From IMG/VR virus record IMGVR_UViG_2526164691_000017, positions 1 to 21,753 of that record: a stretch of 21,753 nucleotides of DNA, one strand, 5' to 3'. The position numbers and the translations under genes are program-made. The stretch comes from a virus (lineage: Duplodnaviria; Heunggongvirae; Uroviricota; Caudoviricetes). The notes beneath the pieces were generated by a model. That model did not search any database. It saw only the letters and a program-made list of their open reading frames with translations, and was not told the origin of the DNA. This document shows, piece by piece, positions 5,067 to 21,236 of the stretch. Every line of letters starts with the position of its first letter. Position 1 is the first letter of the stretch.

Positions 5067-5477
5067 ATGGCTCAGGCTGCCATTTTTAAAGAAATATTCG
5101 ATCAAGTGCGTAAAGATTTAAACTGTGAATTATTTTATTCTGAGCTAAAACGTCACAATGTCTCACTTTATATTTACTATTTAGCCACAGATAATATTCA
5201 CATTGTGTTAGAAAACGACAACATAGTGTTAGTAAAAGGACTCAAAAAGGTTGTAAATGTTAAATTCTCCAGAAACAAACATCTTATAGAGACCTCCTAT
5301 AATAAGTTGAAATCAAAAGAAATCACATTTCAACAATACAGGGAAAATCTTGCTAAAGCAGGAGTTTTCCGATGGGTTACAAATATCCAGGAACACCAAA
5401 GATATTACTATGCCTTTGATAACTCATTACTATTTACTGAAAGCATCCAGAAAACTACACAGATCTTACCACGCTAA
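5067..5477 (+). CDS. ydfO: YdfO/YbcV-like prophage protein (136 aa from the internal Met)
   Basis: ORF 5052..5477; starting at [11 protein letters not shown] gives 136 aa, the K-12 YdfO length; position next to gnsB matches Qin order; AT-rich. Confidence 0.55.
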
Positions 5478-13758: not shown

Positions 13759-14124
13759 ATGATTGATGTCTTAGGGCCGGAGAAACGCAGACGGCGTACC
13801 ACACAGGAAAAGATCGCAATTGTTCAGCAGAGCTTTGAACCGGGGATGACGGTCTCCCTCGTTGCCCGGCAACATGGTGTAGCAGCCAGCCAGTTATTTC
13901 TCTGGCGTAAGCAATACCAGGAAGGAAGTCTTACCGCTGTCGCCGCCGGAGAACAGGTTGTTCCTGCCTCTGAACTTGCTGCCGCCATGAAGCAGATTAA
14001 AGAACTCCAGCGCCTGCTCGGCAAGAAAACGATGGAAAATGAACTCCTCAAAGAAGCCGTTGAATATGGACGGGCAAAAAAGTGGATAGCGCACGCGCCC
14101 TTATTGCCCGGGGATGGGGAGTAA
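13759..14124 (+). CDS. insC: IS2 transposase OrfA (InsC), 121 aa
   Basis: [56 protein letters not shown]: HTH plus leucine-zipper OrfA; A6G slippery heptamer (GGGCAAAAAAGTGG near 14068-14081) for the -1 frameshift into insD. Confidence 0.9.
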
Positions 14125-14987
14125 GCTTAGTCAGCCGTTGTCTCCGGGTGTCGCGTGCGCAGTTGCACGTCATTCTCAGACGAACCGATGACTGGATGGA
14201 TAGCCGCCGCAGTCGTCACACTGATGATACGGATGTGCTTCTCCGTATACACCATGTTATCGGAGAGCTGCCCACGTATGGTTATCGTCGGGTATGGGCG
14301 CTGCTTCGCAGACAGGCAGAACTTGATGGTATGCCTGCGATCAATGCCAAACGTGTTTACCGGATCATGCGCCAGAATGCGCTGTTGCTTGAGCGAAAAC
14401 CTGCTGTACCGCCATCGAAACGGGCACATACAGGCAGAGTGGCCGTGAAAGAAAGCAATCAGCGATGGTGCTCTGACGGGTTCGAGTTCTGCTGTGATAA
14501 CGGAGAGAGACTGCGTGTCACGTTCGCGCTGGACTGCTGTGATCGTGAGGCACTGCACTGGGCGGTGACTACCGGCGGTTTCAACAGTGAAACAGTACAG
14601 GACGTCATGCTGGGAGCGGTGGAACGCCGCTTCGGCAACGATCTTCCGTCGTCTCCAGTGGAGTGGCTGACGGATAATGGTTCATGCTACCGGGCTAATG
14701 AAACACGCCAGTTCGCCCGGATGTTGGGACTTGAACCGAAGAACACGGCGGTGCGGAGTCCGGAGAGTAACGGAATAGCAGAGAGCTTCGTGAAAACGAT
14801 AAAGCGTGACTACATCAGTATCATGCCCAAACCAGACGGGTTAACGGCAGCAAAGAACCTTGCAGAGGCGTTCGAGCATTATAACGAATGGCATCCGCAT
14901 AGTGCGCTGGGTTATCGCTCGCCACGGGAATATCTGCGGCAGCGGGCTTGTAATGGGTTAAGTGATAACAGATGTCTGGAAATATAG
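14082..14987 (+). CDS. insD: IS2 transposase OrfB (InsD), DDE catalytic domain, 301 aa
   Basis: ORF track; overlaps insC in the -1 frame; IS3-family integrase-core protein with the DDE triad (the final Glu in the [10 protein letters not shown] segment). Confidence 0.9.
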
Positions 14988-15045
14988 GGGCAAATCCACA
15001 TTTATTAATGTTGCCCCCGCATTAACAAATCATCAAGGTGACGAC

Positions 15046-16833
15046 ATGGACGATATTAATATCAGCCTCGACGAACTTAACACTATTGATTTATCCCCCT
15101 TAATCCAGAGTAAGCTGCCAGTTACCTGCTTTGATATCACAAAGTATCTTTCTAGCCTAGGTGATGGAAGAGCGGAGATAAGACTGCTAACCCATATTTG
15201 CGGTTTTCACTTTCGTCCCGAAAATCCACAGGTACCATTTGGTCCGTGCTTTCAAAGCAGCCAAGGTAGATCTGCAATTCCGGATGACATTAACGGGTTG
15301 TCGCTGGAGGTACTTTCTCAATTTTGCCCGACGATAGAGCTACCCGAACTTCAAGCTCGTATTGCTGATACACTTTGGGTTCGTAAAATTGGTGGAATCC
15401 GTTTTCCTTTGCTGGCAGTCCGTGCTTATTATGCGTCCAGTATAGCTATTATGACATCGCAAGGGACGTGGGTTAGTGCTTTAGAACGCCTAGAGCGTGC
15501 GCTTAGGCTGTGTTGTTTTTTTCGAAAGCATACTGATTTCAGGGATGAATTTGATCAGCTTTCGGCACATCTACTAGCAGAGTATGAACGTACCAGAGAA
15601 CAAGGCGATTCACCTTATCCGCTGCGACTCCTGCAACTCGATATCGACTGTAAAGTGAGTGAGCCATCTTTTATTGCCCAGGAACTCCTGTTTCTGACAA
15701 AAAACTATCTGGCTCAAAAATTATTTTCATTTGCCGTCGATGCCTGTAAAACCGCAATCCCGATTGCGAATAGGTGCTGTGACAGAGATACACAGTTTGA
15801 ATTCTGGCGGCTTCTTGCCGATACACATCTGGAAGAGTCAAAATTCCAAGATGGCGGTATGATTTCGGCAGCCTGCATGCAGAATGCTATTGAAGCACTG
15901 GCTAATATTCCAGGAACCCGAATAGAACGTCTTGCGCTGTATGAAGAAATGCGTGATTACCAAATCGAATCCCGTCACCAGATGTCTATCCTTCAGTCTC
16001 CCCCTCAAGATATTAGTGAGATTGTCCATCAAGCCAAGAGTCGGGTAGTCGGAAGAGATTTGTTTGATATGGTTTTCAGACTTGCGATGCTGGTCTGTCG
16101 GCCAACCAGCATTGAGAGACTTAAGGCTCAAGCAATAGAACAAAAGGCCAACAGCATAGCTTGGATGTTTGGATCAACACATATTGATCATGAGGGAATG
16201 ACACTTGCTCGCATACCCGCAGGATTGGGGATTGATGATGCAAATGGGGCAGTTATTTGGCCCATAATGATGACGAGAATGCGTATCGACCATGAGTTGG
16301 CAGTAGCTGGGCAAATTATTCCTGCTACAGATGAGATCACAATGAAATATCCAATCTCGGAGGCGTTTTTTCGCGATATGTTCATCAATCATCCCTTCAT
16401 CCCGTTTGGGCATGAAGAGTTTTTCATCAAGGGTATGGTTTGCGGTTTCAATGGAGATTTTATGACGGCATGCCACGTGTTGATTCCCCAGATCGAAAAT
16501 AGTCTGAGATATGTGGCTAAAATTAAAGGTGAGGAACCATCGCAGCTTCACGGGGACGGTTCGCAAGAGCGAAATGGACTCAAGGGATTACTAGATAATC
16601 CACTGATTATTGAAGCTTTCGGCGTAGACATAATTGGCAATCTTCAGGCCTTACTGGTAGATAAAATCTATGGTGATTTACGAAATCAACTAGCTCACGG
16701 ATATGTGCCTGCCGGTTACTACAATCAACCTCCCTGCATTTTTGCATGGTGGCTTGTATTGCACATTCTAATGAACCCTACGGCGAGATACTGGCAAGCC
16801 ACTTATGGCCAAGAGAGTGAGGCTCAGACTTAA
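15046..16833 (+). CDS. Large uncharacterised cargo protein (595 aa) with C-terminal HEPN-like R-x4-H motif; candidate defence/abortive-infection effector
   Basis: ATG at 15046 preceded by AAGGTGA RBS (the ORF-track start at 14962 lies inside IS2 and is an artefact). RNQLAHG encoded at 16681-16701. Plus-strand gene convergent with the minus-strand early operon; GC content appears below the flanking genes by eye. No K-12 Qin counterpart recalled here. Confidence 0.7.
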   Translation: MDDINISLDELNTIDLSPLIQSKLPVTCFDITKYLSSLGDGRAEIRLLTHICGFHFRPENPQVPFGPCFQSSQGRSAIPDDINGLSLEVLSQFCPTIELPELQARIADTLWVRKIGGIRFPLLAVRAYYASSIAIMTSQGTWVSALERLERALRLCCFFRKHTDFRDEFDQLSAHLLAEYERTREQGDSPYPLRLLQLDIDCKVSEPSFIAQELLFLTKNYLAQKLFSFAVDACKTAIPIANRCCDRDTQFEFWRLLADTHLEESKFQDGGMISAACMQNAIEALANIPGTRIERLALYEEMRDYQIESRHQMSILQSPPQDISEIVHQAKSRVVGRDLFDMVFRLAMLVCRPTSIERLKAQAIEQKANSIAWMFGSTHIDHEGMTLARIPAGLGIDDANGAVIWPIMMTRMRIDHELAVAGQIIPATDEITMKYPISEAFFRDMFINHPFIPFGHEEFFIKGMVCGFNGDFMTACHVLIPQIENSLRYVAKIKGEEPSQLHGDGSQERNGLKGLLDNPLIIEAFGVDIIGNLQALLVDKIYGDLRNQLAHGYVPAGYYNQPPCIFAWWLVLHILMNPTARYWQATYGQESEAQT

Positions 16834-18513: not shown

Positions 18514-18961
18514 TTGCTTTTTCTATAAGTTCGTCAGTTTCACGATCCACTACGGCAGGATCAGCAAAAAGCAGTCCGGACTCCACCACATCGCCATATT
18601 CTTTGTTTAACCCGGCGATCATGTACGTGATGCTTTTTCCGTCACTAATTTCACGATACAACCTGAAATCATTAATCCGGATAGCCTCCATAATTGCAGG
18701 CACTAGCGCCGTGAACTTTTCACGCTTATCCCTGGTGTCGATAGCCTTCCAGCGTTCGAATATCTTCACTCGATTAACGCCAAGCGCTCGCTGATCAACC
18801 GCGCCACCTTCATCTGTGACACGCTGAACATCGATGTTCGGGCGCTCTTTCAAAGCCCAGAATGCTTCAGTGATTAATATCGTCGCCTGCTCCTGTGTCA
18901 TTCCTGGTCGACATATCCAGGCATCCAGAGCCTCACGAGCCTGTTCAGGAGTGATTTTCAT
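18440..18961 (-). CDS. YdaT-like protein (173 aa), possible CII-type regulator analogue
   Basis: Sits immediately downstream of the Cro-like dicC, as ydaT follows ydaS in Rac-type prophages; similar size. Sequence similarity is only a weak impression. Confidence 0.4.
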   Translation of the reverse strand: MKITPEQAREALDAWICRPGMTQEQATILITEAFWALKERPNIDVQRVTDEGGAVDQRALGVNRVKIFERWKAIDTRDKREKFTALVPAIMEAIRINDFRLYREISDGKSITYMIAGLNKEYGDVVESGLLFADPAVVDRETDELIEKAIAFKLAYRQQYQQKAGWNYEPSFC

Positions 18962-19175
18962 TGTTCAACCGCCCCGCCCGCTTCGTCTTACGATATTCGT
19001 CATAAACCTTGGGATCATACAGAAGCTCCCCGCCAGATGCCTCCTGTAGACGCATCGCGCGACCTTCAGGAACCAGTATCCCCCAAGCAGCAACACTTGC
19101 CAGTCTCACTCCTGCGGCATTGGCAAGCTTTGTTTTGCTGCCAAAAAAAGTAATTGCGTCAACTTTAAGCATCAA
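18945..19175 (-). CDS. dicC: Cro-like transcriptional regulator DicC (76 aa)
   Basis: FGSKTKLANAAGVRLASV...VPEGRAMRLQEASGGELLYDPKVYDEYRKTKRAGRLNNENHS matches K-12 DicC as remembered (76 aa); divergent from dicA across an operator-containing intergenic region. Confidence 0.8.
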   Translation of the reverse strand: MMLKVDAITFFGSKTKLANAAGVRLASVAAWGILVPEGRAMRLQEASGGELLYDPKVYDEYRKTKRAGRLNNENHS

Positions 19176-19185
19176 AGCCCCCTCT

Positions 19186-19203
19186 TGTTAGACTTTTCTA
19201 ACA
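19186..19203. promoter_or_regulatory. Putative DicA operator: palindrome TGTTAGA-CTTT-TCTAACA in the dicC-dicA divergent promoter region
   Basis: Perfect 7-bp inverted repeat with 4-bp spacer in the 77-bp intergenic region; the same half-sites recur downstream of dicA. Confidence 0.6.
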
Positions 19204-19252
19204 TTATTGTGCGCGGGATATCTAAGTCAAGAAAAATTAGAATTACCTAACT

Positions 19253-19660
19253 ATGGATACAAGAACCCTAGGCCAGCGAGTTCTGGCGCGACGAAAAGAA
19301 TTACGCTTAACACAACGAGAAGCTGCGCGCCTCGCTGGAGTTGCTCACGTCACAATTTCACAATGGGAAAGAGACGAAACCCAGCCAGTCGGAAAACGAT
19401 TGTTTGCTTTAGCGGATGCTCTGAAGTGCTCACCTACATGGCTAATGTTTGGTGACGAAGACAAGGCACCAGTGCCTGCACAAGAACTTCATGTGGAAAC
19501 AGAGCTAACTCCCAACCACAAAGAATTGATCGAATTATTCGATGCTCTTCCATCTTCCGAGCAGGAAGCCTTGCTGTCTGAAATGCGCGCAAGAGTAGAA
19601 AACTTCAACAAACTCTTCGAAGAAATGCTTAAAGCGCGTAAAAATAAATCAATAAAATAA
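19253..19660 (+). CDS. dicA: HTH-XRE repressor DicA (135 aa)
   Basis: N-terminal HTH (LTQREAARLAGVAHVTISQWERDE); FALADALKCSPTWLMFGDEDK and MRARVENFNKLFEEMLKAR resemble K-12 DicA as remembered; 135 aa. Confidence 0.8.
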   Translation: MDTRTLGQRVLARRKELRLTQREAARLAGVAHVTISQWERDETQPVGKRLFALADALKCSPTWLMFGDEDKAPVPAQELHVETELTPNHKELIELFDALPSSEQEALLSEMRARVENFNKLFEEMLKARKNKSIK

Positions 19661-19692
19661 CATTCTTTTCAAGTGATTAGTTGCGCCCACTC

Positions 19693-19718
19693 TTTTTGTT
19701 AGACCAATCTAACAAAAA
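19693..19718. promoter_or_regulatory. Putative DicA operator: palindrome TTTTTGTTAGA-CCAA-TCTAACAAAAA upstream of ydfA (dicB-operon promoter region)
   Basis: 11-bp perfect inverted repeat with 4-bp spacer sharing the TGTTAGA/TCTAACA core of the 19186 site; sits between the dicA stop and ydfA. Confidence 0.6.
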
Positions 19719-19828
19719 ACACTTGCCTATCATGTTAGGTTATTCTAAATTACTTTCCATCAAGACACCGCACGGTGTTCTCAGCAAACAGTTCCGCTAC
19801 CCCGGCGTTAAGGGGAAATGAGGTCAGC

Positions 19829-19984
19829 ATGGATACTATCGATCTTGGCAACAGCGAATCTCTGGTATGTGGCGTGTTCCCCAACCAGGACGGCACGTTC
19901 ACCGCGATGACGTATACCAAAAGCAAAACGTTTAAAACCGAAAATGGTGCCCGTCGCTGGCTGGAAAGAAACTCAGGTGAGTGA
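19829..19984 (+). CDS. ydfA: YdfA (51 aa)
   Basis: From the internal Met of ORF 19775..19984: MDTIDLGNSESLVCGVFPNQDGTFTAMTYTKSKTFKTENGARRWLERNSGE, matching K-12 YdfA as remembered. Confidence 0.7.
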   Translation: MDTIDLGNSESLVCGVFPNQDGTFTAMTYTKSKTFKTENGARRWLERNSGE

Positions 19985-19985
19985 T

Positions 19986-20561
19986 ATGGATTTCGACACA
20001 ATCATGGAAAAGGCTTACGAAGAATACTTCGAAGGCCTTGCCGAAGGCGAAGAAGCTCTCAGCTTCAGTGAGTTTAAACAGGCACTCAGAATAAGAATGT
20101 GCTCTCACAATGACGCGGAGCACAAATATGAGAAGCAAAATCAGACCGCAGAAAATTTTGTTCTGGAACCCGGAGAAACGCTTTTCAAAATTCCCGTTAC
20201 GTGCCCCATTTGCGGTTTTACATCAGAAGAACTTGACGACTCCTGTAACAATCAGGAAACAACCAAGTATGTCGAAGATGATACCGAGTGCGCACGAAGA
20301 ACGATTATATCCACGAGTCCAAACTCCAGGGCCAATAAATCTCACTTTGAGAGGGTGATTAATCCACTCCCCCAAACCAATAAAAAAGATGCCGGAGGAC
20401 AAAAAACCCAATGGAACAACGGGATATCTGTCAAAAAAAGACGTTCCATTAAAGACAAACAACGCAGCGCCAACAACTGTAAGCGCTTTATACCAGTAAT
20501 CAATTTTCATGTTCTTAAGCGGATTTATTGGTGGTTGCGACATTGCTTAATGAATCCTTAA
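19986..20561 (+). CDS. YdfB/YdfC-region protein as one continuous 191-aa ORF
   Basis: ORF 19944..20561; ATG at 19986 immediately after the ydfA stop; N-terminus MDFDTIMEKAYEEYFEGLAEGEEALSFSEFKQAL matches K-12 YdfB as remembered; contains CPICGF (CxxC) and a basic C-terminal tail. Confidence 0.45.
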   Translation: MDFDTIMEKAYEEYFEGLAEGEEALSFSEFKQALRIRMCSHNDAEHKYEKQNQTAENFVLEPGETLFKIPVTCPICGFTSEELDDSCNNQETTKYVEDDTECARRTIISTSPNSRANKSHFERVINPLPQTNKKDAGGQKTQWNNGISVKKRRSIKDKQRSANNCKRFIPVINFHVLKRIYWWLRHCLMNP

Positions 20562-20820: not shown

Positions 20821-20873
20821 TTTCTGGTGACGTTTGGCGGTATCAGTTTTACTCCGTGACTGCTCTGCCGCCG
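20821..20873 (+). ncRNA. dicF: DicF small RNA (antisense inhibitor of ftsZ translation)
   Basis: TTTCTGGTGACGTTTGGCGGTATCAGTTTTACTCCGTGACTGCTCTGCCGCC followed by GTTTTT matches the 53-nt DicF sequence as remembered; located between ydfBC and dicB as in K-12. Confidence 0.75.
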
Positions 20874-21047: not shown

Positions 21048-21236
21048 ATGAAAACGTTATTACCAAACGTTAATACGTCTGAAGGTTGTTTTGAAATTGG
21101 TGTCACTATCAGTAACCCTGTATTTACTGAAGATGCCATTAACAAGAGAAAACAAGAACGGGAGCTATTAAATAAAATATGCATTGTTTCAATGCTGGCT
21201 CGTTTACGTCTGATGCCAAAAGGATGTGCACAATGA
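21048..21236 (+). CDS. dicB: Cell-division inhibitor DicB (62 aa)
   Basis: From the internal Met of ORF 20943..21236: MKTLLPNVNTSEGCFEIGVTISNPVFTEDAINKRKQERELLNKICIVSMLARLRLMPKGCAQ, matching K-12 DicB as remembered. Confidence 0.85.
   Translation: MKTLLPNVNTSEGCFEIGVTISNPVFTEDAINKRKQERELLNKICIVSMLARLRLMPKGCAQ

Follow-up and report, generated by a model that had tools for sequence, protein, structure and literature searches.

Two perfect inverted repeats with a common TGTTAGA-N4-TCTAACA core lie on either side of the repressor gene dicA in the stretch of 21,753 nucleotides analysed here, referred to as the window, and the question they raise is whether they are the sites through which a single repressor controls its own gene, the divergent gene dicC and the ydfA-dicF-dicB operon. 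The operators of the DicA repressor in the prophage Qin of Escherichia coli K-12 are reportedly treated by Bejar et al. in 1986 and 1988, among other sources. We consider it very probable that the palindromes of the window are the operators with high affinity in an immunity switch of the P22 type, carried by a Qin-family prophage. This reading is based on what is directly observed, namely the sequences of the repeats, where they lie with respect to genes and promoter hexamers, how far their number exceeds chance, their identity with a K-12 operator and their pattern of conservation.

The prophage and its immunity genes

The window is a Qin-family prophage with the layout dicC / dicA / ydfA / dicF / dicB, the same gene order as in K-12 Qin. 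Over the 1.1 kb around the palindromes, E. coli DEC9B has the identical sequence (100%), and ATCC 25922, like other E. coli chromosomes, agrees at 99.8%. The homologous region of DEC9B is a lambdoid prophage adjoining rspB, rspA and ynfA, in the same chromosomal neighbourhood as K-12 Qin, and its gene content (rem, hokD, ydfT/ydfU, cold-shock genes, dicB and ydfD) makes it a fuller relative of this cryptic prophage. The prophage of the window contains an IS2 insertion, and dicA, dicC, dicF and dicB are all intact. The gene calls of the preliminary description (dicC, dicA and ydfA-dicF-dicB) were right, as judged from the NCBIfam models NF007257 and NF007282, DUF1391, Rfam RF00039 and the DEC9B annotation:

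18945-19172, minus strand: dicC, Cro-like regulator of 75 aa; 84% identical to K-12 DicC; Pfam P22_Cro; NCBIfam NF007282 'DicC', 163.5 bits (cutoff 130)
19253-19660, plus strand: dicA, repressor of 135 aa; 57% identical to K-12 DicA; NCBIfam NF007257 'transcriptional repressor DicA', 224.7 bits (cutoff 101); Pfam HTH_3
19829-19984, plus strand: ydfA (DUF1391), first gene of the repressed operon; RefSeq annotation of the identical DEC9B region and Pfam
20822-20873, plus strand: DicF small RNA; Rfam RF00039, 72.5 bits, E-value 2.8e-15
21048-21236, plus strand: dicB, cell-division inhibitor; open reading frame and RefSeq annotation of the 100% identical DEC9B region

Palindromes, weaker copies and promoters

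Both repeats are present where the preliminary description had placed them. The first, at 19186-19203, reads TGTTAGA-CTTT-TCTAACA (TGTTAGACTTTTCTAACA), and the second, at 19693-19718, reads TTTTTGTTAGA-CCAA-TCTAACAAAAA, its arms (19693-19703 and 19708-19718) being 100% complementary around a 4-nt centre according to the repeat finder. With at most one mismatch allowed, TGTTAG-N6-CTAACA matches twice in the 21,753 nt as opposed to 0.04 matches expected from dinucleotide shuffles, and none of 100 shuffles reached two matches, so that a chance origin of the palindromes is rejected. The motif had been described as a 7-4-7 unit, and as a palindrome this is exact; however, its innermost A...T pair is not conserved, and the unit conserved in relatives is TTGTTAG-N6-CTAACAA.

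The motif had also been thought to occur nowhere else in the window, which holds for the perfect form but not for two degenerate copies adjoining the perfect ones. Reduced to its minimal core, TTAG-N6-CTAA, the motif is present at exactly four places in the window, all of them in the intergenic DNA on either side of dicA; shuffled sequences contain 0.43 on average. A further weak match at 5206-5223, with 2 of 12 core positions mismatched, lies inside a DUF1398 gene and was treated as chance. The four sites, all without strand, are the following:

19185-19204: probable Oc-type (P22 OR1-like) operator TTGTTAG-ACTTTT-CTAACAt; exact palindrome with the half-sites and position of K-12 Oc; half-sites invariant and spacer variable in relatives
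19235-19252: candidate degenerate operator AATTAG-AATTAC-CTAACT (AATTAGAATTACCTAACT), similar to K-12 'Oa' and P22 OR3; abuts the dicA ATG and lies over a -10-like TAGAAT (19238-19243)
19693-19718: P22 OL2-like 11-4-11 palindrome, a probable operator; core TTGTTAG-ACCAAT-CTAACAA at 19696-19715; kept in relatives
19733-19750: candidate imperfect operator TGTTAG-GTTATT-CTAAAT (TGTTAGGTTATTCTAAAT), similar to P22 OL1; in the spacer and over the -10 of the dicB-operon promoter; GTTAG and CTAA invariant in 46 distinct class I regions (classes are defined below)

The two weaker copies are reverse complements of each other at 89%.

The position of these sites relative to the promoters is a further line of evidence. 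Two promoters can be placed in the intergenic regions, the first by a consensus scan and the second as a prediction from the sequence:

19203-19230, minus strand: dicC promoter; -35 TTGACT (19230-19225), 16-nt spacer, -10 AATAAT (19208-19203); 10/12 in the consensus scan
19723-19751, plus strand: predicted dicB-operon promoter (dicBp equivalent); -35 TTGCCT (19723-19728), 17-nt spacer, -10 TAAATT (19746-19751)

The dicC promoter is the sole one called in the region by the scan, and the AGTCAA at 19225-19230 is invariant in a five-way alignment that includes P22. Its start site is predicted near 19196; the start of the homologous K-12 promoter was mapped by 5'RACE (PMC3441716). The first palindrome takes in the final base of the -10 and from there crosses this expected start, and with +1 near 19196, as taken from the K-12 homology, the 20-mer at 19185-19204 covers -8 to +12 of dicCp. 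The dicBp-like promoter matches the consensus at 8 of 12 positions, which is under the threshold of the scan, but it aligns with K-12 TTGACC-17-TAATCT and with P22 PL (TTGACC...TAAATT), and its hexamers are conserved in relatives. A dicB-operon promoter had been expected between dicA and ydfA, and this TTGCCT-17-TAAATT element, aligned to both K-12 and PL, is in the expected place. The perfect palindrome lies upstream of its -35, the core stopping 7 bp short of it, and the imperfect copy takes up the spacer and reaches over the -10. Transcription from this promoter is predicted to start near 19758. In the conserved leader downstream of dicBp, RNAalifold found no convincing consensus structure on a MAFFT alignment. 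On the other side, the dicA ATG follows the -10-like TAGAAT at a distance of 9 nt and is not preceded by a Shine-Dalgarno sequence; the dicA start is predicted near 19250, and the mRNA is therefore probably near-leaderless, in analogy to lambda cI transcribed from PRM.

The second palindrome begins 33 nt past the dicA stop codon, and its predicted RNA fold of -9.9 kcal/mol (z = -5.3 relative to shuffles) raises the alternative that it is an RNA hairpin, acting as a dicA terminator or a transcript-stability element and not as a protein site. We regard this as highly improbable: only two of the eleven base pairs are G-C, the stem is followed by a run of A and not of U on both strands, the terminator scan did not call it, and the same half-site is met again at three further positions that overlap promoters. 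The K-12 counterpart, which ends in CATACA, would break the hairpin, yet it resembles a weakened operator, and the arms are invariant in sequence, not co-varying, across classes I and II. A Rho-independent terminator at 19693-19718 was rejected on the A/U-rich stem, the missing U tract and the silent terminator scan.

Operators of K-12 and P22

In K-12, the DicA operator Oc, TTGTTAGTCATAACTAACAA, reads TTGTTAG-TCATAA-CTAACAA and overlaps the -10 of dicC (Yun et al., 2012; PMC3441716). Placed before a reporter, it conferred DicA-dependent repression in vivo that rose with DicA over-expression, and a single A-to-C exchange in its right half-site (CTAACAA to CTCACAA) abolished this repression (PMC3441716). 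Multicopy plasmids with the region selected point mutations in Oc, and crude extracts gave a DicA-dependent shift of the Oc fragment, although other proteins shifted the fragment too; when bound, K-12 DicA represses dicC and activates dicA (PMC3441716). The K-12 protein was largely insoluble. In the Reg-Seq study, the DicA site at dicC served as a gold standard and was recovered, whereas the one at dicB was graded 'low-evidence' and had no assigned binding location (PMC7567609). A later preprint annotates -8 to +12 of dicCp as the DicA site and reports that intact sites are selected against on plasmids, a toxicity attributed to titration (bioRxiv 10.1101/2025.05.13.653802), with which the number of about 20 DicA molecules per cell is consistent (PMC7567609; bioRxiv 10.1101/2025.05.13.653802). 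For the dicB side, deletion of dicA derepressed a dicBp-lacZ fusion 22-fold (PMC10448788), and expression of dicB is toxic (PMC10448788, PMC3441716). According to Ragunathan et al. (2023; PMC10448788; also PMC3441716), each intergenic region contains three operator sequences, like lambda PR and PL.

The first palindrome has the half-sites and spacing of Oc at the homologous position, so that the comparison with the published DicA site, which the preliminary description had recommended, came out in its favour. The Oc inverted repeat TTGTTAG-N6-CTAACAA is matched at 13 of 14 bases at 19185-19204 and at 14 of 14 at 19696-19715, and the window shares with K-12 Qin the TTGTTAG / CTAACAA half-sites, the 6-bp spacer and the -8 to +12 position at dicCp, as well as TGTTAG-type repeats flanking the dicBp -35 between dicA and ydfA. 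However, the two loci are different alleles, with 57% identity between the DicA proteins, 84% between the DicC proteins and differing spacer sequences. The K-12 site upstream of dicBp is the imperfect TGTTAG-CTATAG-CATACA, where the window has the perfect, extended 11-4-11 form, and nothing in the window clearly corresponds to 'Om' (ATGTTAACAAAAACAT), the middle site of K-12. The K-12 counterpart of 19733-19750 is TGTTAGTCATGGCTAATC, and 19235-19252 aligns with ATTTAGCATTAGCTAACT of K-12 and with the P22 sequence ATTTAAGATGACTTAACT followed by ATG. Om and Oa, the two further K-12 operators predicted from sequence, showed no DicA binding in the same in vivo assay (PMC3441716), and the weaker copies of the window may for this reason not be DicA sites; as Oa did not bind DicA in vivo (PMC3441716), 19235-19252 may be a DicC-preferred or low-affinity site.

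The c2-cro region of phage P22 aligns with the window position for position:

P22 OR1, ATTAAAGAACACTTAAAT: window 19186-19203
P22 PR -35, AGTCAA (invariant): window AGTCAA, 19225-19230
P22 OR3, ATTTAAGATGACTTAACT, followed by ATG: window 19235-19252, followed by the dicA ATG
P22 OL1, inside TTGACC...TAAATT: window 19733-19750
P22 OL2, ATTTAAGTTTTCTTCAAA, just upstream of the -35: window 19697-19714

In both, an operator lies over the PR start and an operator ending in CTTAACT (CCTAACT in the window) directly precedes the repressor ATG, and at PL one operator occupies the TTGACC...TAAATT spacer with a second just upstream. Residues 1-80 of P22 C2 are 45% identical to the N-terminus of DicA, and P22 Cro is 37% identical to DicC. 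The half-sites differ, ATTTAAG in P22 as opposed to TTGTTAG in the window, and P22 has three operators per region where the window has two clear sites; by eye, the middle OR position (about 19209-19228) is degenerate and retains only a CTAAG half-site, and no clear counterpart of OL3 was found in the dicA-ydfA region of the window. The repressors also differ, since that of P22 contains an S24 peptidase with an Ala-Gly autocleavage module, which the 135-aa DicA, with its own short C-terminal domain, does not: Pfam finds only helix-turn-helix (HTH) families and no S24 peptidase (LexA-like autocleavage) domain in it, the tblastn matches between DicA and P22 c2 end at residue 80, and DicA is described as being without an Ala-Gly cleavage site (PMC10448788). 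Without this module, induction would proceed via an antirepressor (Rem) or other signals and not via RecA (PMC10448788).

The layout is that of a lambdoid immunity region, with divergent repressor and cro genes and shared operators over PR-, PRM- and PL-type promoters. Lambda CI and Cro follow the same logic, in which a divergent repressor and Cro use common operators, PR- and PL-like promoters are blocked and the weak promoter of the repressor itself is activated; however, the lambda operators have no sequence similarity to those of the window, and the repressor architecture differs.

Conservation in relatives and the proposed switch

Loci encoding DicA relatives were collected from one-genome-per-species contigs and from viral contigs with four DicA queries, giving 329 loci after refinement of the open reading frames. 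The loci L011-L013, in which dicA is frameshifted, and the Campylobacter matches L014-L025, in which only about 34 residues matched, were dropped. By their helix-turn-helix sequence, the DicA relatives fall into three classes:

Class I: HTH helix 2 LTQREAA(R/K)LAG; 13 distinct proteins; window type together with Citrobacter and Buttiauxella
Class II: HTH helix 2 TQRSLAKALK; 11 distinct proteins; K-12 type
Class III: HTH helix 2 SQAALGKLV(K/Q); 20 distinct proteins; Enterobacter, Pantoea, Erwinia and another E. coli prophage type

For class I, 31 upstream and 46 downstream sequences, all distinct, were compared: the TTGTTAG and CTAAC columns have an entropy of about 0, as opposed to up to 1.2 bits in the spacer columns and up to 1.6 bits in the flanking columns, with 0.8-1.6 as the range reached by spacer and flanks together. 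A permutation test of the half-site columns against the remaining intergenic DNA gave p = 0.0018 upstream and p = 0.00015 downstream; for the class II upstream footprint the same type of test gave p = 0.12, as these sequences vary too little for significance. TGTTAG-N6-CTAACA stands at the Oc position in 30 of 31 class I and in all 25 class II sequences, and upstream of dicBp in 44 of the 46 distinct class I regions, there with a variable spacer; class II has TGTTAG-N6-CA(T/A)ACA at the latter position. The site in the promoter core reads xGTTAG-N6-CTAA(AT/TC) throughout classes I and II.

These data bear on the suggestion that the palindromes are accidental repeats or relics without a present function, left in a prophage that is decaying; the cryptic state of K-12 Qin and the IS2 insertion in the window could be cited for it. 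Besides the two matches found against 0.04 expected, in loci of Escherichia, Citrobacter and Buttiauxella the half-sites stay the same and the bases next to them diverge, and the four dic genes are intact, which together leave this explanation extremely unlikely. Since dicB expression is toxic, repression is expected to be under selection.

In class III, the Oc position reads xCTTAG-N6-CTAAGx, which is the same palindrome with the outer G/C swapped on both arms, and the left half-sites at both dicBp positions are likewise CTTAG. If one dimeric protein used the sites of both regions, a symmetric change of this kind, appearing in the two regions together, would be expected. The pattern of conservation alone is equally compatible with binding by DicA and by DicC.

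Which of the two proteins is meant is therefore to be weighed separately, and the palindromes could in principle be essentially sites of the Cro-like DicC, with DicA acting through other sequences. In a ChIP-seq preprint on K-12, DicC gave its strongest signal at its own promoter region, with one inferred site on each side of dicA and a palindromic motif TT(A/C/T)G...C(G/A/T)AA (PMC11430063). Peaks thus lie on both sides of dicA (PMC11430063), the TTNG...CNAA motif is present in all four sites of the window, and the conservation pattern fits DicC as well as DicA. Against this, repression at K-12 Oc needs dicA, rises with DicA over-expression and is lost by one base change (PMC3441716), and plasmid copies select mutations exactly in Oc, in keeping with titration of the few DicA molecules in the cell (PMC7567609; bioRxiv 10.1101/2025.05.13.653802). 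The outer G/C moreover tracks the class of DicA, while an E. coli class III DicC has hardly changed: counted from the sequences, this protein (locus L211) differs from the DicC of the window at only 7 of 75 residues, as opposed to about 66% identity between the two DicA proteins, which differ throughout helix 2. We therefore consider sites essentially for DicC very improbable and retain the palindromes as DicA operators, a proposal of the preliminary description that is supported by the excess over chance, the match to K-12 Oc, the promoter geometry and the conservation. Its further claim that one repressor acts on both sides of dicA is likewise supported, but needs three qualifications, in that K-12 DicC shares the sites according to ChIP-seq, that each region holds at least one further, weaker site and that the DicA site at dicBp of K-12 is graded 'low-evidence' (PMC7567609).

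The comparison between classes, which is essentially one evolutionary contrast, suggests that the outer base follows DicA and that DicC reads the inner TTAG/CTAA core, a reading that fits the DicC ChIP motif. Taken one step further, and tentatively, as we hold it to be somewhat unlikely, the outer base (G in TGTTAG of classes I and II, C in CCTTAG of class III) might set the immunity specificity of DicA via the N-terminus of helix 2 (TQR as opposed to SQA), with DicC confined to the inner TTAG...CTAA that all classes have in common. If this were true, several hetero-immune DicA repressors of co-resident Qin- or Rac-like prophages could share one nearly invariant, Cro-like DicC, and cross-talk would be possible, the DicC of one prophage flipping the switch of another.

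For the window itself, the following mechanism is proposed. A dimer of this DicA allele would read two TTGTTAG half-sites 6 bp apart. Bound at 19185-19204, it would cover the -10/+1 region of the dicC promoter and block dicC and, in analogy to K-12, would also stimulate the weak, probably near-leaderless dicA promoter. Bound at 19693-19718 as well as at the weaker site of the promoter core (19733-19750), it would shut off the ydfA-dicF-dicB promoter. DicC, as the Cro analogue, would recognise the same sites through the inner TTAG...CTAA core and probably repress dicA from 19235-19252, over the presumed dicA start. With the four sites divided in this way, the sharing between DicA and DicC would result in a bistable switch.

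The operator reading as such is already known, as consensus, positions and logic are those of K-12 Qin and P22, here in a different prophage allele, and because the K-12 counterparts have been described, its value is mostly one of annotation. What is added is the refined consensus TTGTTAG-N6-CTAACAA, the number of four sites instead of two, the promoter geometry, a location at the sequence level for the putative dicBp operators and, from sequence comparison, the apparent half-site switch between classes I/II and III. From the latter comes a modest but testable idea, namely that a single outer base pair may separate DicA immunity classes, DicC being interchangeable between them. As for the biology of the host, the operators would keep dicC and the toxic division-inhibitor operon dicF/dicB repressed, and through this restraint they would decide whether a cell carrying the prophage filaments.

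Reading frames of the early region and the dicB operon

According to the annotation of the identical region of E. coli strain DEC9B, the prophage has, in its replication/early region, an IS2 transposase gene and a gene for a DUF4209-domain protein, with hokD on one side and the DUF977 gene on the other. This segment is probably an insertion that interrupts the early-right operon. Two further reading frames lie downstream of ydfA.

about 13759-16833: IS2 transposase gene and DUF4209-domain gene
19986-20561, + strand: intact reading frame of 191 aa, starting with the YdfB N-terminus MDFDTIMEKAYEEYFEGLAEGEEALSFSEFKQAL...
20223-20543, - strand: reading frame of 106 aa, lying between ydfB' and dicF in antisense orientation to the dicB operon

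The 191-aa frame matched phrog_35040, a family of unknown function, over profile positions 15-205 of 205 (E 1.9e-140), while a Pfam search of it returned no match. In RefSeq, the identical DEC9B region carries ydfB only as a truncated pseudogene, and the 42-aa YdfB of K-12 may be a remnant of a longer protein of the 191-aa type; ydfC is absent from the window. The 106-aa frame, which has a hydrophobic appearance when judged by eye, gave no match in the Pfam and PHROG searches. Since it overlaps the phrog_35040 frame on the opposite strand, this frame is unlikely to be a gene.

Leader of the dicB-operon transcript

The leader (19757-19815, + strand) is conserved and is arranged, in the direction of transcription, as follows.

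CATCAAG
about 19764-19779, + strand: hairpin 1, ACACCG-CA-CGGTGT
CTCAG...GTTCCGC
19800-19815, + strand: hairpin 2, CCCC-GGCGTTAA-GGGG

Both hairpins are kept in the relatives from Citrobacter, Enterobacter and Pantoea with differing stem sequences and a loop of the GGCGATAA type, and RNAalifold yielded no convincing consensus structure on the MAFFT alignment of the leader. The conserved leader hints at a nut/put-like site or a processing site.

Operators of the DicA classes

Class III DicA proteins, encoded at loci L008-L010 and L186-L265, carry SQAALGKLVK as HTH helix 2, a sequence similar to that of the P22 C2 helix. Their equivalent of Oc, the published K-12 operator at the dicC promoter, lies about 70 nt upstream of dicA and reads CCTTAG-N6-CTAAGG in place of TGTTAG-N6-CTAACA. 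The neighbouring DicC of the E. coli members differs from that of the window in only 7 of 75 residues.

Upstream of the -35 element of dicBp, the dicB-operon promoter, the operator of the window type (19696-19715 in the window) is a perfect extended palindrome, whereas the K-12-type sequences examined (locus L002, 1877-1896, for K-12 itself) have an imperfect counterpart with a right arm of CATACA or CAAACA. With such an imperfect palindrome, dicBp repression could be weaker or less cooperative in K-12-type Qin.
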